Positions 3,365 through 60,047 of a stretch of DNA of 64,000 nucleotides are shown one piece after another. Position numbers and translations under genes: made by a program. The stretch's first letter is position 1. Every line of letters begins with the position of its first letter. Below the pieces are notes generated by a model. The model worked only from the letters and a program-made list of their open reading frames with translations, had not been told where the DNA came from and searched no databases. Source of the stretch: Candidatus Omnitrophota bacterium (GTDB lineage: Bacteria > Omnitrophota > Gorgyraeia > Zapsychrales > Aceulaceae). Where the stretch lies: the NCBI GenBank assembly GCA_028693815.1, contig JAQUUP010000003.1, forward strand, positions 1,850-65,849. The letters run 5' to 3'.

Positions 3365-6300
3365 TTACTTGTCAGAAAAAATAGATCCTACCTTTCTTTC
3401 TGATTTAATTGGCGATTTTAACGTCACTGTTCCATCAGGATGGACATAAACCTTTTCGCCTTTTTCAAAGCTAACTTCATAACTTGGATGAAACTTTGAT
3501 GTGCCGAAACTTTTTGACCAAACAAGAGAAGCATTGCTTTCCATCCGAGAGACTCTGTTTGATCCATATTTTCGAGAAGAAGAATCCTTGCCCAAATATC
3601 TTGAAGCAATTGAAACCGCTTCGCTTTGTGAAATGCGAGGATACACTTCTCCTGCTTCATCCCATGTTGCCTGAAGACAAGCTCCGTTAATTGGATTAAC
3701 TTGAACCAACACATGCGTTTTTAAAACATTCTTCTGATATGGATTAGATATATTACTTGCCTTTGTCCCGTCAATATCACCTTTTTCATTTTTTGTTAAT
3801 GAAGGCGTTATGTTTGAAACAAATCGGTCTAAAGCCAATAATGTATATTCTTTATTGTCATCCAGAGAAGTCACATTGAATTTTCTCATTTCTTGGGCTT
3901 TATCAAATAAACTCAAGAACTCAGCATCACCTTTCAAAGGATCAGGCAATGCTTGCGCCAAATAAATCAAACAAAGAACTGGAGCCGGTGCCTTCTGAAA
4001 GTTTCCATGGCTCATTAGAGACTTTGGAAAACCTTTTTCTCTTGATAAAGCAACGCTTTCTTGTGTCTCTGCTTTTCTTTCTTGATTCATTTCATCAATT
4101 TGTGCAAGCGCAACAACCAAGCTTGAATTAGGCCTTGCTTGAACAAGATGGCAAGAAGTATTTTCTAATTCTTTCTTATACGCTTCTTGATTAAGATTCT
4201 CTGGCGGTTCGTATACAGCTTTATACGTTCCTGTTGATACCAAAGGCAAATAATCTGCCTGAAAAGCCGTTGTTGTTTGATAGATATTAAAGCCAAGACC
4301 TGAAACTTCTGGATCATTAACCCATAAACCTTCAACGTTAAACTCTGGCATAGGAGCCGCAAAAGGATGAGGCTTAACATCTGTTACAATACCGCGAACT
4401 AAGCGCCAATTAAGATCGCCATTGACAGGAACCAATGCCGGAGAATATCCTCCCATCGGCGGTAAATAATCAATCCAATAAACAAAATTCTTAATGGCAT
4501 CTATTTGATTTGTTGTCTCATACCAATCGCTAAAATGATACGCAGGAGCGATTGGAGCAATCTCAGAATTAAGAGCCGTCACGATTTCACCTGAAATCAT
4601 ATCTTCACCCGGCGTTGTCCAGTGATATGTATTATAAATATCTGATTGCGTTGGACTACTTCCTAATGTGTATCGGATCGTTGCTCTCGTCGATGCAGCA
4701 CCTGTATAATAAGATTGCTGAGCCGTCTCTTGAGGAAACGTGTCTTGACCGTTAAGTACCCCAAGATGATTGACGTATGCAAAATCTAAAAATGCATCAT
4801 CAAAATACGCCACACCTCCATCGGCAAGCACATCTCCTGCATTTGCATAAACATAAAGCATATAACGCATTTTTACAATACTATCATTATCGGCCAAAGT
4901 ACCGCTTACCTGTAATTGCGTCCAACCATTAACACCAACAACGCTTTCATCTGAATCAGAAACAACCTCGCCGGCCGCATTTAATGCTTCAATCTTAAGC
5001 CCTGCTGTTGCAGAGGAATTAAAATCAAAATCTGTTTTTATTTGAACAGTTGCATAAAACGGATCATTTGGACCCGCATCAAATTCTTGGGTCAATGCAG
5101 CAAAATAATTTTCATTCCCATACATATTTAAATTATCAATTGTATTTTTCGCTGCCAATGCTCCTCCGCTAACATACTCTGCTTGAGCAATCCAAGAACT
5201 GGTTGCCTGATTAGGCTGCGGCCAATTAATATATGGCTCAACAATGGTCCAGTCGTGCAAACCATTCTCCATATCAGGATTCATCAAATTTCCAGGTGGT
5301 GTTGGAGGCTGAATAACATCAGTGCTCAATACAGCTTGATCAAACTGAACAATACCTCCATTAGCCAATGTATCGCCTTCTTTGGCAGAAACAAAGGCAA
5401 CATATCGAACCTTAACAGCATTCTGAGGCGCTGCTGCAGCAACATAGAGAAGTCGCCAAGAAGTCTCTCCTCCGATAATATCTTCATCTCCCACAGGATT
5501 ACCGTTTAGATCCTCCTCAATGACGAGCCCGCCATCATCCAGAAACTCAATAGCAAGTCCACCGGCTGCCATTGATATTGGATTAATGTTCGTCTGCGCT
5601 TCAATCGTTGCATAATACATTGTGCCTAACACCGGCTGCGGAATAACAAACTCTTGACTAACGGTTGCATAATAATCAAAATCGCTGCAATTCGTTACAT
5701 CAATTGTATTTCGAGCAGAATAAGTTCCTGCAAAAGGAGACTGTGTCTCAAGATCCCATGTTATAGAAGACGGCACTGGCTCAGAAACATCCCAAGCGTT
5801 AAGACCATTCTCGAATCCTGGATTTTGCAAATCTCCTCCAGGAGGTGGAATAGGATCTGTCGTTAAAACAGCTTCATCAAACATCGCAATCCCACCTTGA
5901 GCACTAAGATCTTCTCTTAATGCAAAGACTGAACAACTATATCTGATTTTTGCTGTTCCTTCTGGTGTATCAAAAGATAAGTAAAGCTGTGTCCAGTTTG
6001 TGTTGCCTCCAATCATGTCCTTGTATTCAATAATATTTCCATCATCATCCTCAATTTCCTCTCCAGCATCATTTAAGAACACAACTGAAATTCCGGCTTG
6101 CGCTGTTGATACTACGCTAATCTCAGTCATAGCTTGAAGAGTTACATAATATGTTGTGAGCTCTGGAGCATCAATATCCTGACTCACAGCCGCATAATAA
6201 TCTGGGAGAGGATCGCCATTTGGAGGCGGCACAGTTGAAAGATCTTCAACATTGATCGTATTTTTTGCAGAAAAAATTCCCATAAAAGGAGCAACCTGTT

Positions 6301-8689
6301 CCAAGTCCCATGTTGGAGCAGTGCCTTCTTCTAAATAAGCTTCTGTAATATCCCAGTGGTTAAATCCATTTTCGAATCCTGGGTTTTGTAAACTCTCAAC
6401 AACAGGAGGTGGAATATAGTCAGTGGTCAAAACAGCTTCATCGAATATCGCCGTACCACCTTGAGCGCTAAGATCTTCTCTTAATGCAAAAACTGAACAG
6501 CTATATCTAATTTTTACAGTATCCTCTGGCGTATTAAAGGATAAGTAAAGTTGCTCTTCGGGGGTGTTGCCTCCAATCATGTCCTTGTATTCAATAATAT
6601 TTCCATCATCATCCTCAATTTCCTCTCCAGCATCATTTAAGAACACAACAGAAACACCAGCCTGTGCCGTTGAAGCTGAATTAATATTAGTTTTTGCTTG
6701 AAGAGTTACATAATATGTTGTGAGCTCTGGAGCATCAATATCCTGACTCACAGCCGCATAATAATCTGGGAGAGGATCGCCATTTGGAGGTGGCTCAGTT
6801 GAAAGATCCTCGATATTAATTGTATTTTTTGCCGAAAGAGACTCTGCAAGAGGATTATTTTGTTCAAGACTCCATGTTGGAGCAGTGCCTTCTTCTAAAT
6901 AAGCTTCTGTAATATCCCAATGGTTAAATTCATTTTCGAATCCTGGATTTTGTAGATTCTCAACAACAGGAGGTGCAATATAATCAGTCGTCAAAACAGC
7001 TTCATCGAATATCGCAATCCCACCTTGAGCATTAAGGTCTTCTCTTAATGCAAAGACTGAACAACTATATCTGATTTTTGCAGTATTCTCTGGCGTATCA
7101 AAAGATAAGTAAAGTTGTTCTACAGGAGTGACGCCTCCAATCATGTCTTTATATTCAATAATATTTCCATCGTCATCTTCAATTTCCTCTCCAGCATCAT
7201 TTAAGAACACAACAGAAACACCAGCCTGTGCGGTTGAAGCTGGATTAATGTCAGTTGTCGCTTGAAGAGTTACATAATATGTTGTGAGCTCTGGAGCATC
7301 AATATCCTGACTCACAGCCGCATAATAATCTGGGAGAGGATCGCCTGGCTGAGGGGGTTCTGTAAGAAGATCCTCAATATTAATTGTATTTTTTGCCGAA
7401 AGAGACTCTGCAAGAGGATTATTTTGTTCAAGGCTCCATGTTGGTCCCGGAGGAGGAGTTAGATTAGGATCAAGTGCCGCTTCTGTAATATCCCAACCAT
7501 TAAGCCCATTTTCAAATCCTGGATTCTGAAGCTGACTTCCTCCTGGAGGTGCAATATAGTCAGTGGTCAAAACAGCTTCATCAAATAGCACAACTCCGTC
7601 ATGAGCAGCAAGATCGTCTCTGAGCGCAAAAACCATACAACTATATTTAATCTTTACAGTTCCCGCAGGCGCTGTGACAGCTAAATAAAGATTTTTCCAA
7701 TCAGTTGTCCCTCCAATCGTATCAGATGCCTCAGAAAGAACAGTTCCTACAGAATTTAAAAATTGAATTAAAATTCCAGCTTGCGCTGTCGATAATACAC
7801 TGATATCTGTCTTTGCTTGAAGTGTTGCATAATACGTCTCTCCGGCGCTTGCACCATAAAGTTCTTGGCTAACAGTAGCATAATAATCTGGAAGAGGATC
7901 GCCTGGCTTAAGTGGCTCTGTAACAAGATCTTCAATATTAATTGTATTTTTAGCAGAATAAACTCCCCAAGGACTCGGCGTCTGAAGACTCCACGTTGGC
8001 GCCGGAGGAGGAGTTAGATTAGGATCAAGTGCCGGCTCTGTAATAGTCCAGCCGTTAAATGCATTTTCAAACCCTGGATTCTGAAGCTGACTTCCTCCTG
8101 GAGGTTCAATATAACTCGTGGTCAAAACAGCTTCATCAAAATACGCAAGACCATTCTGAGCTATGACATCGTCCTTAGATGCATAAACTGAGCAATTATA
8201 TCTAATCTTTGCGGTTCCCGGAGGAGCCGTAACAGCTAAATAAAGATTTTTCCAATCAGTTGTCCCGCCAATCATATCAGATGAATCGAAAATAACGAAT
8301 CCTGCAGAATTTAAAAATTGAATTGCAACTCCAGCCTGCGCTGTCGATAATGGACTAATATTTGTCTTCGCTTGAAGTGTTGCATAATAAGTCGTCCCAA
8401 CGCTTGCATTAAATTCCTGTTTAAGTGTTGTATAGTATTCCGGTGCCGATGATTGAAGAGCATTGACATTAATTGTATTTATAGCAGAATAACTCCCCCA
8501 AGGACTCGGTGCAAGATTCCATGTTGGCAAAGTACCTTGTACTACGGCGGGCTCTATTCTAGTCCAACCATTTAAGCCATTTTCAAACCCTGGAGTTGCA
8601 AGCATGTTGACAGCCAAAGCAGGCGCAGCAAAAATAAACACAACTGCCATGGTAAGAGTGATTAATCTCGTTAATTTCTGAAACAACAT
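3365..8689 (-). CDS. Giant secreted repeat protein (1774 aa) with about 8 tandem CBM4/9-like ~185-aa modules and a ~570-aa unique C-terminal region
   Basis: N-terminal signal peptide (MLFQKLTRLITLTMAVVFIFAAPALA). The protein has repeated NPGFENGLNGW...YYATLQAKT...STAQAG...FDEAVLTTDYI blocks typical of CBM_4_9 carbohydrate-binding modules. The repeat DNA is nearly identical between modules. Confidence 0.85.
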   Translation of the reverse strand: MLFQKLTRLITLTMAVVFIFAAPALAVNMLATPGFENGLNGWTRIEPAVVQGTLPTWNLAPSPWGSYSAINTINVNALQSSAPEYYTTLKQEFNASVGTTYYATLQAKTNISPLSTAQAGVAIQFLNSAGFVIFDSSDMIGGTTDWKNLYLAVTAPPGTAKIRYNCSVYASKDDVIAQNGLAYFDEAVLTTSYIEPPGGSQLQNPGFENAFNGWTITEPALDPNLTPPPAPTWSLQTPSPWGVYSAKNTINIEDLVTEPLKPGDPLPDYYATVSQELYGASAGETYYATLQAKTDISVLSTAQAGILIQFLNSVGTVLSEASDTIGGTTDWKNLYLAVTAPAGTVKIKYSCMVFALRDDLAAHDGVVLFDEAVLTTDYIAPPGGSQLQNPGFENGLNGWDITEAALDPNLTPPPGPTWSLEQNNPLAESLSAKNTINIEDLLTEPPQPGDPLPDYYAAVSQDIDAPELTTYYVTLQATTDINPASTAQAGVSVVFLNDAGEEIEDDDGNIIEYKDMIGGVTPVEQLYLSFDTPENTAKIRYSCSVFALREDLNAQGGIAIFDEAVLTTDYIAPPVVENLQNPGFENEFNHWDITEAYLEEGTAPTWSLEQNNPLAESLSAKNTINIEDLSTEPPPNGDPLPDYYAAVSQDIDAPELTTYYVTLQAKTNINSASTAQAGVSVVFLNDAGEEIEDDDGNIIEYKDMIGGNTPEEQLYLSFNTPEDTVKIRYSCSVFALREDLSAQGGTAIFDEAVLTTDYIPPPVVESLQNPGFENGFNHWDITEAYLEEGTAPTWDLEQVAPFMGIFSAKNTINVEDLSTVPPPNGDPLPDYYAAVSQDIDAPELTTYYVTLQAMTEISVVSTAQAGISVVFLNDAGEEIEDDDGNIIEYKDMIGGNTNWTQLYLSFDTPEGTAKIRYSCSVFALREDLSAQGGIAMFDEAVLTTDPIPPPGGDLQNPGFENGLNAWDVSEPVPSSITWDLETQSPFAGTYSARNTIDVTNCSDFDYYATVSQEFVIPQPVLGTMYYATIEAQTNINPISMAAGGLAIEFLDDGGLVIEEDLNGNPVGDEDIIGGETSWRLLYVAAAAPQNAVKVRYVAFVSAKEGDTLANGGIVQFDQAVLSTDVIQPPTPPGNLMNPDMENGLHDWTIVEPYINWPQPNQATSSWIAQAEYVSGGALAAKNTIDNLNMYGNENYFAALTQEFDAGPNDPFYATVQIKTDFDFNSSATAGLKIEALNAAGEVVSDSDESVVGVNGWTQLQVSGTLADNDSIVKMRYMLYVYANAGDVLADGGVAYFDDAFLDFAYVNHLGVLNGQDTFPQETAQQSYYTGAASTRATIRYTLGSSPTQSDIYNTYHWTTPGEDMISGEIVTALNSEIAPIAPAYHFSDWYETTNQIDAIKNFVYWIDYLPPMGGYSPALVPVNGDLNWRLVRGIVTDVKPHPFAAPMPEFNVEGLWVNDPEVSGLGFNIYQTTTAFQADYLPLVSTGTYKAVYEPPENLNQEAYKKELENTSCHLVQARPNSSLVVALAQIDEMNQERKAETQESVALSREKGFPKSLMSHGNFQKAPAPVLCLIYLAQALPDPLKGDAEFLSLFDKAQEMRKFNVTSLDDNKEYTLLALDRFVSNITPSLTKNEKGDIDGTKASNISNPYQKNVLKTHVLVQVNPINGACLQATWDEAGEVYPRISQSEAVSIASRYLGKDSSSRKYGSNRVSRMESNASLVWSKSFGTSKFHPSYEVSFEKGEKVYVHPDGTVTLKSPIKSERKVGSIFSDK
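5400..8400. repeat. Intragenic tandem DNA repeats of period about 555-570 bp inside the giant surface-protein gene
   Basis: Near-identical segments recur at about 6011, 6581 and 7141, and again at 7262-7462 versus 7817-8017. Antisense spurious ORFs in the provided track have near-identical translations. Confidence 0.75.
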
Positions 8690-9108
8690 AAAGCCCTCCT
8701 TGATTTGTTATTAAATATCTAAATTATATACCTGATTTTTGTTTATTCCGTGACTTAGGCACTAAAAGTATAGCACGCGCTTATTCTGAATGCCACTTGA
8801 TATCAAATATATACTAATATTAGTAGCGTCATAAGTCATTATTTTACAACCAGTTAAAACAGTATTTCAAAGAAAACCAAAAAAATATCAATTTCTCAAA
8901 GAAAATATTCTATTTCTCAAATAAAAAGCCACGGTTCCGAACTCCCTTTAAAAGCTCTTCTACCGTGGCAGTTAAATATTGTACCCAAAGTATAGCCGAT
9001 AAAATAAACTTTTCAAGGCCAAAATGGCACCTTTAAGTAAACGCTTTCTTTAAACACCTTAACTTTATTTCTTTCAAAGAGTTAAAATATTTTACCAAAA
9101 AATTTTCC

Positions 9109-13988: not shown

Positions 13989-15925
13989 TTATTCTTTCTT
14001 GGCCTTTTGACCAACAACTTGCGATACCACTTTTTCTGGAGATTTCTCGTAATGAGAAAACTTCATGCTATAAGTTCCTCGACCTGCAGTGACAGAGCGA
14101 AGATCCGTCGCATATTTAAACATTTCCGAAAGCGGCACATGAGCTTTTAAAATTTGCTTCTTAACTCTAACTTCAGATCCCATAATTCGTCCCCTGCGAG
14201 AACTAAGATCCTTTGTAATCTGACCTAGAAATTCGTCTGGAATAACAATGGAAACTTCCATAATTGGTTCAAGCAAAGCCGGTCCTGCCAATTTAACCGC
14301 TTCTCTCAAAGCCATTGCAGCTGCAATCTGAAATGCCATATCAGATGAATCAACAGCATGAAACGATCCATCCAAAACAGTCACTTGAATATTTTGAATT
14401 GGAAAACCAGCTAAACGCCATCATGAACAGCCTGTCGTACCCCTTTCTCAACAGAAGGAATATAATTTCTCGGAATTGCCCCACCAAAAATCTTATTAAT
14501 AAACTCAAACTCTGCTCCATCTTTTGACAATGGCTTAACTTCAAGCTCAACATCTCCGTACTGTCCACGTCCACCAGATTGTTTCTTATATTTATGGCGA
14601 GCGCGCGCTGTTCTTGAAATAGTTTCTCGATAAGAAACTTTAGGCGTGCCAAGATCTACGTCAACATGATAGCGCATTCTCATTCTTTCCAACATAACTT
14701 TAAGATGAAGATCACCGACACCAGAAACAATAAGTTCGTTTGTATCATTATCTCGATAAGATCGAAACGTATGATCTTCCTCGCACATGCGATGTAAACT
14801 TGCTGAAATCTTCTCTTCATCCGAACGTGTTTTAGGTTTAATCGACGCCGAAATAGATGGCTCAGGAAATTTAATCGGATCAAAAATAATTCTTTCCTTG
14901 TTTTCACACAACGTGTCACACACATGCGTATTTTTAAGTTTTGGCAAAGCAACAATATCGCCACAACTTGCTTCTGTAACACTAATTTGCTCTTTTCCTT
15001 GTAATATACTAATAGAGCCAACCGTTTCTCTTGTGTTTTGATTAACATTAAAGAATGACGAATTTGCTGTCATTTTTCCACTTAAAATGCGGACCAAAGA
15101 CAAATGCCCAAGGTGAGGATCAAACATCGACTTAAAAACATACCCTGTCAAAGGAGCTTGATCTAACGGCTTGATGCGCCTGATTTCTTCAGAATTCTGG
15201 AGATGTGCTTCAAATTCTGGATGCTCAACTGGAGAAGGCAAATATGCAACGATCCCATTTAAAAGGTCTTTAATTCCCGCATCCGTCAAAGCGCTTCCAG
15301 AAAAAATAGGAAAGAATTTTGCCTGCGAAACAGCTTTATGAAGAGCTTGCTTAATTTCATTTTCAGACAAAGTTCCCACCTCTAAATACTTCTCAATCAG
15401 CTCATCATCCGTCTCTGCTACAGACTCAATAAACTGAGGATCATTGTAATCAACAACACCTGCCTTAGATGAAAGCTGCTCTCTGATTGAAGCAATAGTT
15501 TCGTCTATATTAACTTCATTTTTATCTGTTTTATTAATAAAAATAATGCGAGGAATATATCGTTCTTGAAGCCGCTGCCAAACATCCTCAGTTCCAACTT
15601 CAACACCATTGACGGCATCCACGATAACAATAGCTGAATCTACAACTCTTAAGGCAGAAATTGTCTCGCCAATAAAATCAGAATATCCAGGAGTATCTAT
15701 GATTTGAATTTGATAATTATTATATTTTACGGTGAGCATGCTAGCGTTAATCGAGATCTGACGCTCAATCTCATCATCATTAAAATCACTAATCGAGCTT
15801 CCTTTTTGAACATCACCTTTGCGCGTAATTGATCCGCTAACGAACAAAATGCTTTCCGCAAGCGACGTCTTACCGCAATGAGCGTGTCCAACTAATGCAA
15901 TGTCGCGCTTAAATTTGGCTTCCAT
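13989..15925 (-). pseudogene. Elongation factor G paralog (EF-G2-like) split by a -1 frameshift near 14385-14411
   Basis: The 5' ORF carries the GTPase domain (AHCGKTSLAE, DTPGYSDF, NKTD) and domains II-IV, ending ...VEKGVRQAVHDGV*. The 3' ORF (13989-14384) carries domain V. The lost frame continues LAGFPIQNIQVTVLDGSFHAVDSSDMAF, which is contiguous in intact EF-G. Confidence 0.75.
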
Positions 15926-15966
15926 AATCATTTCCCCTCTTTTAATTTTTATAATCACAATATGTT

Positions 15967-16425: not shown

Positions 16426-16462
16426 CTCCCGCTTTTTATGATTAATAAATTTTTTACCGAAT

Positions 16463-16680
16463 AACAGAAAAGGGGCAACTCTTAACTCACAAGAGTTGCC
16501 CCTCTAAAAATCTTTATTTAGTATTTTATTAACATTCATAACGCAGCCTCCCTTAATTGAAAAGGGCTCAGAACTTTAAAATACTTAATAATTAAAAAGG
16601 GCAGCTCTGTAAAGAGCTGCCCTTAAAATTTCTAAATATTTTTTAAGCGAACATTCATAACCTGGAAGCCTCCTGTCGCT
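16463..16680 (-). promoter_or_regulatory. Two tandem paralogous modules, each RBS + mini-ORF + intrinsic terminator, upstream of the CheD-like gene
   Basis: Module 2 is AGGAGG-N10-ATG (16658..16632: MNVRLKNI*) followed by hairpin GGGCAGCTCT/AGAGCTGCCC and a T-run. Module 1 is GGGAGG-N7-ATG (16539..16504: MNVNKILNKDF*) followed by GGGGCAACTCTT/AAGAGTTGCCCC and a T-run. Confidence 0.5.
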
Positions 16681-16744
16681 AGGTCAAGTGACGCTATTTT
16701 ATTCCTTTTTTAAATACTTGGCAAGAAATTCTTTTTACTTGCCG

Positions 16745-18339: not shown

Positions 18340-18400
18340 CACTTCCGCCTTTAAATGAGCACGTGTCTTATGGAAAGCTAATGAACATAAGTCACTGTGC
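18340..18400. repeat. Conserved ~60-nt 5'-leader element (copy upstream of PLDc_N)
   Basis: AAATGAGC...CTTATGGA...GAACATAAG...GCGAATTTACTCCG aligns with the copies at 19975-20037 and 22381-22435. Confidence 0.6.
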
Positions 18401-18457
18401 GAATTTACTCCGTGCCTGAAAGGCATCGAAGTTCTTAACATTTGGCTTTGAACGTTA

Positions 18458-18560
18458 TCCCAAGAAGGTCCAGGTTTGCGGAATAAAATAACGTAAATCT
18501 GCTAACCCGACGCCATCCTCGCGCGTTCAAAAAATGCGCGGAGACTTCCTTAGGGTTTCC
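18458..18560. repeat. ~105-bp dispersed intergenic element, copy B
   Basis: About 85% identical to 22586-22690. It contains the conserved hairpin GGTTTGCG-GAATAAAATAA-CGTAAAYC and a second stem before AAAAAATGC. Confidence 0.65.
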
Positions 18561-18658
18561 ATATTTAATTTCTTAAGCAATGCTGAACAATGCCTTAATA
18601 TACCTTATTTTTCAAAGAATCGTCAAGCACAAAGAACTACCACAACTATCTAAGATCT

Positions 18659-19195: not shown

Positions 19196-19974
19196 TTTCT
19201 TTGCTCGAGATAAGTTTTAATAATTTCCTTATGATCAAACGCATACATGCCTTCTAAAAGTTTATCGTAAGGCACGATCTTTAAATTTTGAGCATCATCA
19301 CCTGATTGCGGCGTTCCAACTCCTTTGGCAACAAAAACGGTATCAATTGTATGAAACCGCGGATCACGGCTCGGGTCAGAATAAGTATGAAATTGTCTCA
19401 AATCTTCAAGATCTAAATTTGTTTCTTCTTTGGCTTCTCTTACTACTGCGGCTTCTAGACTTTCGCCAGGCTCAACAAACCCTCCGGGCAAAGCCCAGCC
19501 AAAAGGCGGATTGCTTCGTTCAATAATCACAAGGCCTTCAGGCCTTTCGATAATCGCGTCTACCGTGCAATACGGCTCGCCAGCTAGATGTTTAAGCAAA
19601 TGATGAATATAACCATAAACTTCTTTTTCAAAGACTTCTAGAAGCTCTTTATTGTCGACGGCAATGATGATTCTTTCTAAAAGCGCTTTACCATTCTTAA
19701 GCAATCGATAAATTTCCTGAGTCACAATGCGCGTTAGACCAACGGCTGGAAAGTTTTTAGGTAGGATAATATCTAAAACAACGGTTTTGTGTTTTTCGTT
19801 ATTACTTTTTTCTAAAATATCGCGGCAAATCTTTCGAATAGGCGCTTCTCTTTCTTGTAAAGAAAGCGAACTATCAATTTTATTAACATCCAAAAAGCTT
19901 CCGACAAAATCAGCATCAATATTCTTTGCTTTCTCTAATACAACGTCAATATCGGTTTGTTGAATACGTTCCAT
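19192..19974 (-). CDS. NUDIX hydrolase with an N-terminal accessory domain
   Basis: Nudix box [24 protein letters not shown] in the C-terminal half. It overlaps the downstream gene by 4 bp. Confidence 0.8.
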
Positions 19975-20037
19975 AAATGAGCTCCAAGCTTATAAAATGT
20001 CAACGAACATAAGTTCGCTCAGCGAATTTATCCCAAT
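19975..20037. repeat. Conserved ~60-nt 5'-leader element (copy upstream of the NUDIX gene)
   Basis: CAT-AAATGAGCTCCAAGCTTAT...CGAACATAAGTTCGCTCAGCGAATTTATCCC, immediately 5' of the start codon. Confidence 0.6.
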
Positions 20038-21918: not shown

Positions 21919-22380
21919 CTACTTTTTTCCTTTTTGGAGCAAATGACTCAGCTCATTAACAAATTGATTCACATCGCGAAATTGCCGATAAACAGAAGCA
22001 AACCGAACATAAGCAACATCATCTAAAAGCGCAAGTTTTTCCATAATCAGCTCGCCAATATCTTTAGAATTAACTTCACGATCATTCTTCTTTTGAACTA
22101 AACGTTCAATTTCTGACGTTACTTCTTCCATTTTATCCATACTAATAGGTCGCTTTTCGCAAGCTTTAACAATGCCCGATAAAATTTTTGCACGGTTAAA
22201 GGCCTGCCGACGACTATCCGACTTAACAACCATCAAAGGAACTTGCTCAACATATTCATAAGTTGTGAAACGATCTTCGCACTTTAGACATTCTCTTCGA
22301 CGACGAATTGAGGTCCCATCGTTATTTAAACGAGAATCAACAACTTTTGTTTCTTTATATTGGCATTTCGGACAACGCAT
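21919..22380 (-). CDS. nrdR: Transcriptional repressor NrdR
   Basis: MRCPKCQYKETKVVDSR...ECLKCEDRFTTYE zinc ribbon followed by an ATP-cone domain. Confidence 0.9.
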   Translation of the reverse strand: MRCPKCQYKETKVVDSRLNNDGTSIRRRRECLKCEDRFTTYEYVEQVPLMVVKSDSRRQAFNRAKILSGIVKACEKRPISMDKMEEVTSEIERLVQKKNDREVNSKDIGELIMEKLALLDDVAYVRFASVYRQFRDVNQFVNELSHLLQKGKK

Positions 22381-22435
22381 AAATGAGCTCCGAGCTTATG
22401 GAGCACAGCGAACATAAGCTCGCTGAGCGAATTTA
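22381..22435. repeat. Conserved ~60-nt 5'-leader element (copy abutting the nrdR start)
   Basis: In mRNA sense it reads ...TTCGCTCAGCGAG CTTATG ttcgctgtgctc CATAAG CTCGGAGCTCATTT-ATG. Stem CGAGCTTATG/CATAAGCTCG shows covariation with the other copies. Confidence 0.65.
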
Positions 22436-22585
22436 TCCCGTACCCGAAGGGTATCGGGATATTGAACATTTAATTTTGAACCCAATCCCGTACCCGAAGG
22501 GTATCGGGATGTTGAACATTTAATTTTGAACCTGATCCCGTACCCGAAGGGTATCGGGATATTGAACATTTAATTTTAAGCCTGA
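22436..22585. repeat. Three tandem 50-bp repeats, each carrying an imperfect hairpin
   Basis: The unit TCCCGTACCCGAAGGGTATCGGGATATTGAACATTTAATTTTGAACCNNA recurs at 22436, 22486 and 22536, with a CCCG-TACC-gaag-GGTA-CGGG stem-loop. Confidence 0.85.
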
Positions 22586-22690
22586 TCCCAAGGAGGCCTA
22601 GGTTTGCGGAATAAAATAACGTAAACCTGCTGACCGATGCCATCCTCACGCATTCGAAAAAATGCTCGGGGACTTCCTTGGAGCTGCCAA
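22586..22690. repeat. ~105-bp dispersed intergenic element, copy A
   Basis: Aligns with 18458-18560. The minus-strand track ORFs 22470..22745 and 22576..22764 overlap it, but the other copy does not preserve those frames. Confidence 0.65.
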
Positions 22691-22802
22691 ATTTCATTCG
22701 GCTTGTCCCTTTTATCAAACACACAAAACGTGTCAGGATTCTCAACTTTTAGATTCTTGAACATTATCCCAAAAACATTTTAAAAAAACAACGCGGGATT
22801 TT

Positions 22803-24056
22803 TTACTTATACAGCGGAAACTTTGCTGTTAATTTTTCTACATCCAACTTAATTTTCTTAAGCACACTCTCATCGCCCTTATGCGTAACCGCATCATCAA
22901 TAAATGTTGCAATTTGCTTCATCTGATCTTCTTTCATGCCGCGCGTTGTAACGGCAGGAGTCCCGATACGAATACCACTTGTAATTGTTGGTTTCTCAGA
23001 ATCATATGGAATCAAATTCTTATTAACCGTAATGCACACCTTATCGAGCGCATCAGCAGCATCACGTCCTGTTGTTTTCTTCGTACGAAGATCAACCATA
23101 AACAAATGATTATCTGTGCCACCAGCGACAATGCGATACCCTTTTTCTGCTAAAACACTCGCCATCGTAGCTGCATTAACCACAACCTGTTTTTGATATT
23201 CCTTAAAACCATCCTCCAAAGCTTCTTTAAAACAAACAGCCTTTGCAGCAATCACATGCATTAAAGGCCCGCCCTGAACGCCAGGGAAAATGGCAGAATC
23301 AATTTTCTTGGCGAATTCTTTGCGACATAAAATCATTCCCCCTCGAGGGCCGCGCAACGTTTTGTGCGTCGTAGTCGTAACAAATTCAGCATAAGGCACA
23401 GGATTCGGATGAAGCCCCGCAGCTACAAGTCCTGCAATATGCGCCATATCCACCATTAAATAAGCACCAACCTCATCACAAATTTCACGAAATTTCTTGA
23501 AATCAATAGTGCGCGAATAAGCTGAAGCACCGGCAATAATCATTTTAGGCTTTGTCTCTTTCGCCAATTTTAAAATCTCATCATAATTAATCATTTCTGT
23601 TTTTTTATCAACACCATAACTAACAATATGATACATGCGTCCTGAAAAATTAATCTTATGTCCATGTGTTAAATGTCCGCCACAAGCTAAGTCAAGCGCC
23701 ATTAATGTATCATTGTTTTTAAGCGCAGCTAAACAAACTGCCATATTGGCTTGCGATCCAGAATGTGGCTGCACGTTAGCATGCTCTGCTCCAAAAATCT
23801 CTTTAGCACGATCTATGGCAAGCTGTTCGACAACATCAACATTTTCGCATCCATGATACCAACGAGCCTTTGGATATCCTTCAGCATATTTGTTAGTCAT
23901 AACAGACCCTTGCGCTTCTAAAACAGCCTTTGAAACAAAATTTTCAGAAGCAATCAGCTCAATATTATTATTTTGACGCTTAATTTCTTTTTGGATCGCA
24001 TCAAAAACTTTATTATCTTTTTCTTTTAAATCATCCATAACACTTCTCCTATCCAC
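22803..24056 (-). CDS. glyA: Serine hydroxymethyltransferase
   Basis: 417 aa with conserved SHMT blocks ([28 protein letters not shown]). Confidence 0.95.
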
Positions 24057-41527: not shown

Positions 41528-41755
41528 AGAACCTTCCTTTTATTGTTAATCTCATCTCTAATAAAAAAATCATCAATATATTTTAAAACATTTCTTTAAC
41601 ATCGGTTAAAGAAAAGAACATTTGCCTCTGCTGCCCCTTTGAGTCAAATTGATTCTCTAAATAAACAATTAAATTCTTAAACCCTTAGATAGAATAAGCT
41701 AACATTCGGATTTACTTTGCGGAAGGAATACTTAAAACCAAGCCGCGGCAATAGA

Positions 41756-42521: not shown

Positions 42522-42599
42522 TTAACTCCTCTTAAAAATAAATTAAACAAATACAACGAATTTACCCCAGGCTTAACTCTCAGAAATAAAAAGATCTCC

Positions 42600-43274: not shown

Positions 43275-43401
43275 AACACTCCCCTTAAATGAGCAGTTAA
43301 GTTACAAAGCTTAAAAAGCGACGCAACTTAGAGCTGCGAATTTACTCCGCACGTGAAACGTGTCAGAGTTTCATTAAATAGATATTTTGCAAAAACTAAA
43401 T

Positions 43402-54535: not shown

Positions 54536-55109
54536 AATCTTCTGATTTTTTATGAGTAACGATAATAAATCTTATCATTTATCAAAACATATCACAATAA
54601 TTAACTATTATAAACTAAGAAAATCTAACCTCCAGTAAGAAGCAACAAAAAAACCATTGTAAATTATTGATTCAAAACAGTTTTAACACTCAGATAAACA
54701 AAAACAGAGTTGGAACCTTTTTAATTCTTAATTAAATATTGTATCCTCAGACCTTCCCCCTATTATTTTCGTTGCAACACCATCTTTCCTAAATATTTCT
54801 TTTCGCTTAATCCAGACAATAATGACCGCTAAAAAATAAAAAAAATGTGTCGCATAGTTGAACATCGGGGCAAATAGGATTAATAAGTTAAAAAAATGTG
54901 TCAATAACTAGAAATAAATACCAAACGATAGAACATCGCCAAATTAATACTCAATCGAAATAATGCCTTAATCCTTTAAATTCACTGCTGGACAACACAA
55001 TAATAAAAGCACAATTGCCCAAACATGCGCATCTAAGAAAAAGAAAAAAATAGCTAACACCTTCTGAACAGATATTTTCTTCTTTTGATTGTGCATTAAA
55101 TATACTATA

Positions 55110-56227: not shown

Positions 56228-57247
56228 CTAATTAGCGATTCGTTGAACAATGCCCCTCAAAAGCCTCCCTAAAATATCTGCTCCAGTAATAATCCGCTTC
56301 TCATTATTCCAATACAAAACAATGTCGTTATCCACAACATCATCATCTTTATGTTTCGAAGATACCTTAAATTTAAGAATAACTTCCTCTAATTTTGTCC
56401 CCGATTCGGTAACCACAATAGGCCTGTGGCAATAAGTATAAATGCTTCTAACTTGTTTGGAATATATCGCATCACGCAAGAATTGGTCTGCGTTGAGAAC
56501 AAAAACCGGATCATTCTCTTCGTTCGTTATGATAACCCATTTTTCCCTCGAAGCATTAATCTTTTTCAAGAAAGGATCATCAAAACTCTGCTCGTAAGGA
56601 GGAAAGCGTGGCAACCCCTTTGGGGAAAGAGGCAATTGCAAAATACTATTCGAATTAATAATTTCTCCCTCTTTTTCAACATCAATATCATCAAGAGATA
56701 AAAAATTAGAGGCTCCTAAACTTTCCAAAAATCCAACATCCGTGCTTCCCGATTGAGCATGCCGATGAAGAAAAACCTTAACTTCATCTTCTTTAAAGAA
56801 AATCGTTTCTTCTTTTCCTAATAAAACATCCATAAATAGACCCGATGGTTTAGCAATAGGAAACAAAAGAAACTGATAAAATCTAATAATCGGAACAAGG
56901 AACCTGCTTGATTTCAATGCGTGACGAGCAAAATATGCCTGAGGAATAATTTCGCCAAAGAAAGTAATCCAAAAAGTCGAAAAAATAAATGCATAAAAAA
57001 CAGGAAAGAAAGAATCTATCAAAAGTGTTAACAAAACATTCACTCCGACATTTCCCCATAATATCGTGGCTAATAACCAATGAGCATCTTTTCTTAAATT
57101 CAGGATTCTTGCCGCATCAACATTGTTTGTCTTAGCCTGCACCTCAAGCCTTAGTCGACTTAGACCAAATAATCCTAGATTAAGGCCAGAAAACATCGCC
57201 GAATGCAAAATACAAATCAAAATTCCAATTGATTTAAATATGATCAT
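56228..57247 (-). CDS. DUF21 (CNNM) transmembrane + CBS-pair protein, paralog 1
   Basis: FSGLNLGLFGLSRLRLEV DUF21 signature. It is about 45% identical to the adjacent paralog. The preferred start is the Met at 57247. Confidence 0.7.
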   Translation of the reverse strand: MIIFKSIGILICILHSAMFSGLNLGLFGLSRLRLEVQAKTNNVDAARILNLRKDAHWLLATILWGNVGVNVLLTLLIDSFFPVFYAFIFSTFWITFFGEIIPQAYFARHALKSSRFLVPIIRFYQFLLFPIAKPSGLFMDVLLGKEETIFFKEDEVKVFLHRHAQSGSTDVGFLESLGASNFLSLDDIDVEKEGEIINSNSILQLPLSPKGLPRFPPYEQSFDDPFLKKINASREKWVIITNEENDPVFVLNADQFLRDAIYSKQVRSIYTYCHRPIVVTESGTKLEEVILKFKVSSKHKDDDVVDNDIVLYWNNEKRIITGADILGRLLRGIVQRIAN

Positions 57248-57261
57248 AAATTCGAAAATTA

Positions 57262-58284
57262 TTACTTCCGAGGAACTATCCCTCTCAAAAGCCTCCCCAA
57301 AAAATCCGCCCCTGTTATAATTCTTTTTTCTTCCTGACGCCAATAAAGAATAATATCATTATCAATAACATCATCTTCAGGGCTTTTTGCTCTAACTTTA
57401 AGTCTCAATAAAACTTCACCCAATTTCATCTTGCTTTCTTTAATAACAATCGGTCGATGACAATATGTATATATGCTTTTGGCACATTCTTGATCCAGCG
57501 CATCCCTTAAAAATTGATCCGCATTCAGAACATACAAAGGGTCTCCATTTTTATTCGTAAAAACTATCCACTTTTCTCCTGAAGCATGAACTTTTTGAAG
57601 AAATTTATCATTAGCATTTCTTTTATATTTTGGAAAAATTGGAACTCCCTCTATGTTCAAAGATAAAGCAATAATGCTTTTCGGATCTAAGATTTCTCCT
57701 TCATCTTTGGCGAGAATGTCATCAAGAGCTAGAAAATTGGAAGCCCCCATCCCCTCGAAATGACTAACATCTGTATTGCCCGACTGAACATGATGACGCA
57801 ATAAAACAGATATTTCATTCTCATCAAAATAGCTTGTTTCTTCTTTGCCAAGCCATTTATCCAAAAAAAGAGCCGTTGGCTTAGCAAAAGGATACAAAAG
57901 AGTTTGATAAAAATGAATAATGGGAACAAGAATACCGCTTGCCTTCAACGCATGCTTAGCCAAATATGCTTGTGGAATAATCTCCCCGAAAAACGTAACA
58001 GCAATTGTTGCAAAGAAAAACGCCCCTATTCCGTTCATGACTGAATCAGTAAATAACGTCAAAAGAACAACGCTGCCCACATTTCCCCACAGCAAAGTTG
58101 CCAACAGAAAATGTAGATCTTTCCTTAACGAAAGAACCCTCTTCGCATCAGGATCATTCATCTCTGCCAACACTTCCAGCCGTAAACGGCTAGACCCAAA
58201 AAAACCCAAGTTTAATCCAGAAAACAAACCACAGTGAATTAAACTAATAACAACGCCTATCCAGGTAAATACTTTCATTAGCAT
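57262..58284 (-). CDS. DUF21 (CNNM) transmembrane + CBS-pair protein, paralog 2
   Basis: FSGLNLGFFGSSRLRLEV, lying in tandem with paralog 1. Confidence 0.7.
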   Translation of the reverse strand: MLMKVFTWIGVVISLIHCGLFSGLNLGFFGSSRLRLEVLAEMNDPDAKRVLSLRKDLHFLLATLLWGNVGSVVLLTLFTDSVMNGIGAFFFATIAVTFFGEIIPQAYLAKHALKASGILVPIIHFYQTLLYPFAKPTALFLDKWLGKEETSYFDENEISVLLRHHVQSGNTDVSHFEGMGASNFLALDDILAKDEGEILDPKSIIALSLNIEGVPIFPKYKRNANDKFLQKVHASGEKWIVFTNKNGDPLYVLNADQFLRDALDQECAKSIYTYCHRPIVIKESKMKLGEVLLRLKVRAKSPEDDVIDNDIILYWRQEEKRIITGADFLGRLLRGIVPRK

Positions 58285-59458: not shown

Positions 59459-59994
59459 TCTAGCATAATAAAAATAGTCAAATATACTTTAACACTCATA
59501 TGTTAATGAATAATCACTAACATAATATCACTACGAATTATTTTAGTCAAGATAAATACTCACTTAACTCCTCAGTTTTCCCCATGATCGGTTTCCCCTC
59601 GTTTATGTGCCACACTACGAAAGAGCTCAAAAATATCTTCTAAAACTTATGTTCCAGTAAAAATAAAAAAACGCAAAATAAATTAACTCAAAATTATTTT
59701 ATCTTGCATTAAAAATAACTTTTATAACCAATAAAGATTTTAATAGAATAAAAAACTTTAATTTCTGCTATTCAAAACATATAAAACATCCTCAACGCAA
59801 TTACTTTTTAAAATGCCATCATTGATCAACCAGTGCCCTCTCGCTAATAAAGATAAGATCGATAACTCACGCAAATTAGAATCTGTCTTATGAAAAACCT
59901 TAATTAAAATACAATAAATACACAATAAATTAAAATTTTAAAAATTTAAAATGCTATACCTTAAAACAACATAAAAAATACTAAAAACAAAAAA

Positions 59995-60028
59995 CCCTTA
60001 AAGGCACTGCCTCTAAGGGTTTTAAAAA
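59995..60028. terminator. Intrinsic terminator downstream of the SPOR gene (functional on the minus strand)
   Basis: CCCTTAAAGGCA-c-TGCCTCTAAGGG, flanked by A5 and T4. Confidence 0.6.
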
Positions 60029-60047
60029 GAACGTTAAGCTTGCAAGG

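Follow-up and report, generated by a model that had tools for sequence, protein, structure and literature searches.

The 64,000-nt stretch of DNA analysed here (the window) belongs to a metagenome-assembled genome (MAG) of Candidatus Omnitrophota (contig JAQUUP010000003.1, positions 1,850 to 65,849). Our subject is a mosaic of hairpin repeats that lies in the 422-nt spacer between glyA (22803-24056, minus strand) and nrdR (21919-22380, minus strand), here called site A. A second composite, site B, lies in the 316-nt spacer that leads from a nitroreductase gene to the gene of a small PLDc_N membrane protein (Pfam). Most of the window reads in one direction: 61 of the 64 open reading frames (ORFs) taken as genes are on the minus strand, and the GC skew is about -0.2 along the whole length. 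NrdR is 100% identical to a protein of a MAG named Candidatus Omnitrophica bacterium and 97% identical to that of Candidatus Aceula lacicola, and MlaD, which is less conserved, is 84% identical to its counterpart there, which makes the window organism a different species of the Aceula group. A scan of the window for tRNA and tmRNA found none.

In the sense of the mRNA, which is the minus strand, both sites have the same order: an element of about 105 nt (E105), then the 50-nt unit or units, then a conserved leader (L) and the start codon. At site A, L copy A (22380-22435, minus strand; TAAATTCGC...GCTCATTTA) scores 67.8 bits (E = 4e-11) with R1, a covariance model built from an 81-sequence alignment of L. 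The final A of this copy is the A of the nrdR ATG, and a GGAG Shine-Dalgarno (SD) motif lies within its 3' arm. Next to it are three tandem 50-nt units (22436-22585, minus strand), seen by Tandem Repeats Finder (22435-22589, period 50, 3.1 copies, 94% matches, score 275), in repeat family D8 and in the fold of the composite. A unit consists of a 25-nt hairpin (H), with a bulged A and a cUUCGg tetraloop on the minus strand, and a 25-nt AT-rich spacer. In the three units H (22436-22460, 22486-22510 and 22536-22560) reads AUCCCG-A-UACC-cUUCGg-GGUA-CGGGA, and the spacer reads GGUUCAAAAUUAAAUGUUCAAYAU. E105 copy A and the terminal motif that precedes it, AATGAAATTTGG, occupy 22586-22698 (minus strand; pairing with 18458-18570, folds). 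Upstream of it, by sequence reading, lies a decayed unit (22715-22770, minus strand) made of a spacer and a degenerate H hairpin, CCUGACACGUUUUGUGUG; it resembles the hairpin of site C, described below, and locus L108 of Ca. A. lacicola.

At site B, L copy B (18352-18407, minus strand; R1, 66.2 bits) is followed by AAGGCGGAAGUG-AUG of the PLDc_N gene. A single 50-nt unit (18408-18457, minus strand) separates it from E105 copy B, which has the left terminal motif TAAATATGGAAAC (18458-18570, minus strand; pairing with copy A). The repeat finder reported this unit as a fourth, 67%-identical member of family D8 (18407-18461), together with a 98-nt pair shared by the two sites (18410-18507 and 22538-22635, 78% identity, family D11). 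Its H hairpin (18408-18431) reads CUUCG-A-UGCC-UUUC-AGGCA-CGGAG, and between sites A, B and C the differences in H are compensatory (UACCC/GGGUA, UGCCU/AGGCA and CACGU/ACGUG). The two composites are homologous from the terminal motif (TAAATATGGAAAC or AATGAAATTTGG) through the end of L, so a block of about 220 nt was copied whole, and amplification of the 50-nt unit at nrdR came later. A preliminary description of this DNA had reported the three tandem units, the two occurrences of the ~105-nt element, their common strand, with a small hairpin and the conserved leader after each, and the position of the leader downstream of the element in the mRNA; all of these are borne out, the last at both sites. 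The two occurrences, at 22586-22690 and 18458-18560, are about 82-86% identical depending on the ends. A predicted sigma-70-like promoter (TTGACG-18-TATATT, 18626-18597) lies about 20 nt upstream of E105 copy B and is retained in relatives that lack the insert. A Logan contig of the same organism (SRR22315505) ends 73 nt upstream of nrdR, within the first 50-bp unit. Repeats break assemblies, and copy numbers in MAGs are therefore underestimates.

Across the window R1 finds four strong copies of L at 54-68 bits (E 4e-11 to 2e-8) and nothing else above 19 bits, and four copies are far beyond chance. Copy D (19974-20030, minus strand; 55.2 bits), which like the decayed unit had escaped the preliminary description, occupies the 63-nt spacer between the genes of the CCA-adding enzyme and a NUDIX protein, with the ATG directly after it. 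Site C, in the mlaF/mlaD spacer, combines an H hairpin (43345-43368) with L copy C (43286-43344; 54.3 bits) on the minus strand (43286-43368 in all, repeat family D13); the related short motifs that had been noticed near 43355 turn out to be this hairpin and a full leader copy. A probable decayed remnant of L (41658-41714, minus strand) scores 18 bits (E = 0.54), and a truncated 5' end (GGGGTAAATTCGT...) is seen at 42539-42564 (minus strand; sequence reading and R1). Copies C and D must be transcribed through, because C lies inside mlaFED and D fills a 63-nt spacer that has no room for a promoter.

The modules are gained and lost between close relatives, at gene boundaries. The glyA-nrdR spacer is 15 bp long in all 18 relatives' loci that contain the junction (NrdR 96-97% identical; NCBI, ENA, JGI and Logan), and the whole spacer in the window is thus an insertion. 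In relatives the nitroreductase-PLDc_N spacer is 95 bp long and carries no E105, H or L. The spacer between the CCA-enzyme and NUDIX genes measures 5 bp in locus L006 and 63 bp, with one L, in the window. In Ca. A. lacicola it is 101 bp long and has a hairpin and an L variant, and two other relatives have 129 bp of AT-rich DNA there that is unrelated. Between mlaF and mlaD the window has 127 nt with H and L, and Ca. A. lacicola has 164 nt within the same flanks, holding the same kind of spacer and H unit with a 73-nt L variant; Ca. A. meridiana (40 nt) and one further relative (30 nt) have an empty spacer. The L-bearing loci of Ca. A. lacicola and Ca. A. meridiana do not overlap with the window. 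The comparison of orthologous loci, proposed in the preliminary description as a check on mobility, has in this way revealed differences in presence and absence at glyA-nrdR and at other spacers.

L is widespread in Omnitrophota. We scanned one genome per GTDB species for the pattern TAAATTCGC-N34-46-GCTCATTTAWR and found, among the matches listed and with unrelated taxa excluded, about 107 loci or more. By record title, 80 of the matches are loci of at least 58 genomes called Omnitrophota, Omnitrophica or Aceula; a further 22 belong to co-assembly bins with the label uncultured Planctomycetales or Planctomycetia, 5 to bacteria with no label, 1 to a Paceibacterota bin and 13 to unrelated taxa. 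The R1 search covered 100 sources (L016-L113), within which 10 of the 13 unrelated loci fall, and it rejects these ten as chance matches (among them L018, L030, L032, L033, L037, L038, L054, L083 and L111). For the remaining unrelated loci outside that range (L114, L118, L125 and L133), poor folding and sequence were the only grounds of exclusion. In 720 kb of Omnitrophota loci R1 finds 119 copies of L; the density of L is about one per 16-25 kb, and the G+C content of the loci that bear it runs from 35 to 53%. The pattern has no match in 2.9 million viral contigs. A search of the full-text literature on Omnitrophota or Omnitrophica repeats, hairpins, inverted repeats and noncoding RNAs found nothing relevant, and L belongs to an apparently undescribed family of gene-boundary hairpin repeats of about 57 nt, present in at least 58 Omnitrophota genomes.

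What is conserved in these modules, which are non-coding hairpin repeats, is the structure and not the sequence of the stems. L is an imperfect palindrome of about 57 nt (53-64). Its base stem is UAAAU/AUUUA, the 2x2 internal loop UC/UC is constant, the stems covary, and near the tip there is a second loop, UY/UC; the copies start TAAAT, TTAAT or TAAGT, with GGNN in front. When 81 distinct sequences are laid on this hairpin, 96% of the cells are paired, against 18-44% in controls with slid 3' partners. Both sides have changed in 162 cells, compared with 38 +/- 4.7 in shuffles, and none of 500 shuffles reaches 162. Seven of the 19 pairs are fixed by the search pattern, and the covariation signal comes from the other twelve. 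A box CUUAYG/CRUAAG and the second near-tip loop are conserved even though they are absent from the pattern. Of the 119 R1 copies, 31 depart from the pattern: their base stems carry compensatory changes (UUAAU/AUUAA, UAAGU/ACUUA, CGG/CCU) and the UC/UC loop is kept.

Neither strand is marked as a functional RNA, since G-U and A.C oppositions are equally rare in the 81 hairpins (18 and 16) and the stability of H is equal on both strands (48:47). The opposite strand of L folds slightly better (-22.9 vs -19.6 kcal/mol) because UC/UC becomes tandem G.A there. L behaves as a symmetric palindrome with a built-in polarity mark. Several more familiar identities were considered and rejected. With regard to an intrinsic terminator, L ends in ...GCUCAUUUA, with 3 U only, and copies C and D stand inside operons without promoter room; canonical terminators elsewhere in the window have 5-8 U, so L is not the terminator of this organism. 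The segment GCUCAUUUAA resembles GCUCUUUAA of boxA/nut sites; we reject a boxA/nut-like reading, because this segment covaries with the 5' arm and because inverted copies of the element are found as well. Neither the 50-bp units nor TAAATT can be read as promoters, there being no consensus match in the array, where the -35 would fall in the variable H hairpin. Integron attC sites have the cores RYYYAAC and GTTRRRY and come with a cassette array and an integrase. L has the termini TAAATTCGC and GCTCATTTA and not R''/R' cores, and its flanks are housekeeping genes in conserved synteny.

All copies of L are intergenic or at gene ends, and they are oriented: the GCTCATTTA end always faces the gene boundary, and the TAAATTCGC end bears H. 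In the commonest arrangement (T1, 42 classifiable cases) an ORF on the same strand starts -1 to +17 nt from L; the start either joins L directly (ATTTATG, seen at least 11 times; also ATTTAAAATG and the like) or comes after AAGGAGG. In the other (T2, 12 cases) the neighbour is on the opposite strand, and the outer end of L either touches the 3' end of a tRNA there or overlaps a stop codon. For at least 25 downstream genes the ATG comes 0-5 nt beyond L and the stretch between them has no SD; stop codons overlap the terminal TAA of L. The distance to the tRNA is 0 in seven cases, after CCA or the discriminator base. The tRNA-abutting copies are those of L072, L074, L076, L085, L099, L109 and L116, and probably also L068, L098 and L106; L follows the encoded CCA of tRNA-Leu in L099 and L109 and the discriminator base in, for example, L072, L074 and L085. 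Downstream of L stand diverse housekeeping genes (ribosomal proteins, acpP, gap, tpiA, secY, pheT, rsmD, rpoA-rplQ and others). A tie between the orientation of L and the replication strand was considered and rejected, the T2 loci having opposite GC skew in 9 of 12 cases.

L also occurs in higher-order arrangements. Eight inverted doublets, L'-H-L (151-236 nt), have one shared central H each, and with their outer ends, TAAATGAGC... and ...GCTCATTTA, they adjoin the genes on either side. In half of them the upstream ORF ends in a TAA that forms the first three bases of L', and the next ORF begins 2-14 nt beyond L; two others have a divergent ORF whose start is 3 nt from L'. There are also four tandem L pairs, and tandem H-L arrays in L041, L119 and L025. 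The ribosomal alpha operon of Omnitrophica GWA2_41_15 (L043, 6695-7937) gives an example of the fit to genes: the TAA within TAAATTCGC serves as the rpoA stop, rplQ begins 2 nt beyond GCTCATTTA and lacks a Shine-Dalgarno motif, and a second, inverted L lies upstream of rpoA. Distant inverted copies of L as the ends of a cargo transposon were considered and rejected, the 1.1-kb stretch between them in the case examined encoding rpoA.

We favour the view that the glyA-nrdR region is probably a lineage-specific mosaic of interspersed palindromic repeats, comparable to the REPINs built from repetitive extragenic palindromic (REP) sequences, to bacterial interspersed mosaic elements (BIMEs) and to miniature inverted-repeat transposable elements (MITEs), which colonises gene boundaries in Omnitrophota. 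The preliminary description had offered a REP- or MITE-like element as one alternative, and this is supported by the absence of the modules from the orthologous spacers of relatives, by the nature of the leader as a high-copy palindrome, and by the doublets and tandem arrays. The full element would be the inverted doublet L'-H-L of 150-240 nt, with half elements (H-L) and tandem amplifications being common. In this genome the composite of about 220 nt (E105, one 50-nt unit and L) would have been duplicated. One copy would have entered the small membrane-protein gene's 5' untranslated region (UTR) and the other the formerly 15-bp glyA-nrdR spacer, where the unit may then have been amplified further to three copies.

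Spread would take place at the level of DNA, plausibly into TA beside stop codons or SD motifs, as REPINs do with RAYT transposases, and a putative conserved enzyme would act as the mobiliser. The termini are TA...TA. If insertion took place at the TA of a stop codon right before a Shine-Dalgarno motif, this would account for the TAA that L' supplies and for the AGGAGG that so often comes after L. The right junctions of three window copies run on with what stands behind a TA at empty sites, namely at mlaD ([L]TA-AGGGGAG vs TA-AGAGAGGA), at PLDc_N ([L]TA-AAGGCGG vs TA-AAGGTGAG) and at nrdR (TA-TG vs cTATG). The window composites have the terminus TAAATATGG, which matches TAAATGAGC at 6 of 9 positions. 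Elements of this kind would be tolerated because each module folds on itself, so that the upstream stop and downstream start stay close. A role in RNA processing or translational coupling is possible, and any such benefit, be it RNA end protection, RNase III-type processing or translational coupling, would be secondary and hypothetical.

Several observations weigh against this interpretation. As evidence of a target-site duplication, TA matches at the right junctions only, and the left junctions do not align. Among 60 window ORFs scanned against Pfam there is no gene for a transposase, a RAYT or another mobile-element protein. The conserved polarity of the UC/UC loops and the strict placement of L beside SD or ATG are both more than a purely selfish element needs, and the mosaic model does not explain why E105 folds better on the plus strand (see below). 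Finally, the sequence of L is conserved across many genomes, much more deeply than in known REP/REPIN families, and near-identical variants occur in different species (for example in L027, L056 and L035), which argues for selection on a host function. In L027 and L056 the L upstream of rplS is near-identical and the adjacent H entirely different.

One such function would be that of an RNA punctuation element: L, together with H, would be a conserved hairpin, intercistronic or in the 5' UTR, that is recognised by a host factor such as RNase III or an RNA-binding protein specific to the phylum. It would serve the processing of polycistronic transcripts and the protection of their ends, or bridge stop and start for termination-reinitiation, and the mosaic in the window would be an over-grown instance. 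We hold this to be rather unlikely, for all that several of the findings above would suit it: the conservation in at least 58 genomes of widely different G+C content, including boxes that the search did not force, the covariation of L, the SD-less ATGs that closely follow it, and its place directly after tRNA 3' ends. Stop and start flank the base of the hairpin, as in rpoA-TAA...L...AG-ATG-rplQ of L043. Different species retain an orthologous L in front of rplS, acpP and rsmD, and at acpP there is a compensatory change from C-G to U-A. The R sites of phage T7 are RNase III substrates with helices of about 20 bp, and a helix of about 22 bp with internal loops, as predicted for L, would be of a suitable size. 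However, individual copies are dispensable, the same junctions being found without L in closely related species. L occurs in both orientations to transcription (42 T1 vs 12 T2), which yields different RNAs (UC/UC vs GA/GA loops), and neither strand has an excess of G-U. Moreover, copies within a genome are alike together with their H module (L017, L036 and L084), which points to recent amplification.

It is possible, though not what we favour, that L and H have a phylum-wide standing of another order, either as "gene punctuation" read by a putative conserved host factor or as a REPIN-like replicator that has co-evolved with its enzyme throughout the phylum. As punctuation, the cassette would supply the upstream stop and abut the downstream start or the tRNA 3' end, and the glyA-nrdR mosaic would be a runaway local amplification. 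The factor would then have its part in RNA processing, end protection or, at starts that have no SD, hairpin-bridged termination-reinitiation.

The mosaic reading, which we prefer, has also to account for E105. A global alignment of 22590-22690 with 18458-18560 (101 and 103 nt) has 84 matches and two indels of 1 nt, and a block of 26 nt is identical in both copies. The components of the element are a stem that closes it (P1), a hairpin like H (P3) and one that resembles the core of L (P2, GGUUUACG...CGCAAACC in the minus sense), whose region (22593-22637) is a weak R1 match of 14.9 bits. On the plus strand the copies fold into a three-way junction with z scores of -3.1 and -3.3, vs -1.5 and -1.3 on the minus strand, and five stem positions are G-U on the plus strand and A.C on the minus strand. 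The preliminary description was right that the stem GGUUUGCG...CGUAAAYC is fully paired on the plus strand only. From this it had suggested an antisense or independent small RNA, which would be transcribed from the plus strand and could be antisense to the nrdR and PLDc_N leaders. The junction, the G-U positions and the identical block would all fit, and yet we find such an RNA improbable. There are only two copies, recently duplicated and about 85% identical, so that their shared features, G-U pairs included, are not independent, and they show no compensatory changes. Neither copy has a plus-strand promoter, and the single weak terminator-like site (18540-18560) competes with P1. The plus strand is opposite in orientation to all but 3 of the 64 genes and to all recognisable repeat modules.

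The stem GGUUUGCG/CGUAAACC is a variant of the L core: the P2 stem GGUUUACG/CGCAAACC recurs in an L-like hairpin over the NUDIX stop codon of Ca. A. lacicola, where it has the opposite orientation to genes and the G-U form is gene-sense. Compared with the L consensus GACUUACG/CGUAAGUC, the P2 variant has two compensatory pairs and one A-to-G change. This single change creates the pattern of G-U on the plus strand only, which is therefore a trait of a subfamily and not evidence of an antisense RNA. In that Ca. A. lacicola locus (L002, 9325-9369) the L-like core hairpin (GGACAUGGUUUGCG...CGUAAACCAUAAGUCC) covers the last codons and the stop of the NUDIX gene, so part of the repeat has become coding sequence. 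Rfam gave no hit at the gathering score (whole window) or at E<0.1, and a search of both repeat regions at E<=10 gave chance matches only, to miRNA and snoRNA models on the tandem hairpins. Two gapped patterns for E105 had no match in genome contigs and metagenome contigs, blastn and nhmmer found no further homologue in 975 kb of Omnitrophota loci and the window, and E105 shares only stretches of 11-17 nt with the spacer downstream of NUDIX in Ca. A. lacicola. E105 thus appears to be private to this genome among the collections searched. The concern that only two copies exist, raised in the preliminary description, is justified for E105 itself but not for the leader, which has many copies across Omnitrophota.

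A riboswitch-like leader on the minus strand, responsive to a ligand or a protein and acting on nrdR and the PLDc_N gene, is very improbable. Both copies do lie in 5' leaders of minus-strand genes, copy B begins about 20 nt after the predicted transcription start, and E105 contains an anti-SD-like segment, CCUCCUU. But E105 is missing in front of these genes in all relatives examined, the two genes downstream of it have no relation to each other, Rfam has no match, and the minus-strand fold is no better than that of shuffles (z -1.3 to -1.5). We take the region to be neither a small RNA gene nor a riboswitch. A remnant of a protein-coding gene, also contemplated earlier as a degraded coding sequence, has next to no probability. 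The public MAG annotation places a 62-aa hypothetical protein, PHY73_01505, across E105 (ATG ORF 22576-22764, minus strand). In the second copy the frame of this ORF is broken by 1-nt indels and in-frame stops. Compared with 5.8 billion proteins, the ORF had no match except itself; the protein is almost certainly a spurious call on repeat DNA. E105 is most likely without a function of its own.

Other features of the window deserve mention. An ORF of 1,774 aa (3365-8689, minus strand) consists largely of at least five tandem repeats of 555-576 nt (about 188 aa) that are 60-90% identical; it has no Pfam match, and a non-coding spacer of 419 nt (8690-9108) comes before it. Upstream of a BrkB-family gene, two tandem mini-cassettes (16426-16744, minus strand) each combine a Shine-Dalgarno motif, a tiny ORF (MNVRLKNI* and MNVNKILNKDF*) and a G+C hairpin with a U tract, and they could be leader peptides or attenuators, or encode small proteins. 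An EF-G-like gene (13989-15958, minus strand) is split into two ORFs, of which one (14411-15958) stops in the middle of domain IV, the remainder of which, with the C-terminal domain, is on the other (13989-14384, minus strand); a frameshift, a pseudogene or an assembly error could be the reason. Two AT-rich spacers of 574 and 589 nt (54536-55109 and 59459-60047) contain no ORFs or recognisable repeats in an otherwise compact genome. Tandem, overlapping CNNM-domain paralogues of 371 and 340 aa are found at 56228-58284 (minus strand).

Omnitrophota are bacteria that have not been cultured; they are often ultra-small, their genomes are compact, and to our knowledge almost nothing is known of their gene expression signals. 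A selfish L would be, among the REP-like families described, the most widely conserved; a functional one would amount to operon punctuation of a new kind. In practice, L/H repeats break short-read assemblies and generate spurious gene calls such as the 62-aa protein, and R1 could mark Omnitrophota contigs.

L has points in common with several known systems. The R sites of phage T7 are likewise hairpins of 20-25 bp with internal loops that stand between cistrons, directly upstream of ribosome-binding sites; L differs as a genome-wide host repeat, found in both orientations. BOX elements of Streptococcus pneumoniae (boxA-boxB(n)-boxC) have a repeated middle module of about 45-50 nt, as in E105-unit(n)-L with n = 1 or 3. 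They have no sequence relation to the present elements, whose end modules are not a matched A/C pair and whose E105 is private to one genome. The MITE-like repeats, Correia/NEMIS of Neisseria and ERIC/IRU of enterobacteria, are elements of 100-250 bp with terminal inverted repeats. In the doublets L' and L are 57-nt inverted termini, and their TA...TA ends are compatible with a TA target duplication. Shared with these MITEs are the transcribed intergenic sites, the long RNA hairpins and the presence/absence polymorphism at orthologous sites. Unlike theirs, the terminal repeat is itself a 57-nt hairpin, and the phylogenetic spread is much wider. No parent insertion sequence with the same termini was seen beside L in the loci inspected, which were not searched systematically for one.

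REPINs are REP doublets that form hairpins and are mobilised in Proteobacteria by RAYT Y1 transposases, and known REP/REPIN families are specific to a species or genus. In contrast, the consensus of L extends across many species-level genomes of a phylum, its copies are flush with start codons, stop codons and tRNA ends, it is longer (53-64 vs 20-40 nt), and no RAYT was found in the window. REP palindromes are described as having a conserved GTAG or CGTC tetranucleotide at one end (PMC3733652), a head that L does not have. Like REPs, BIMEs and REPINs, however, L is an extragenic, imperfect palindrome with conserved asymmetric mismatches and many copies. It occurs as singlets, as inverted doublets that form a larger hairpin, and in mosaic or tandem clusters with other motifs; it is transcribed within operons, and single copies are rapidly gained and lost. 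Even without the GTAG tag, the L family would act like REPIN, BIME and MITE elements.

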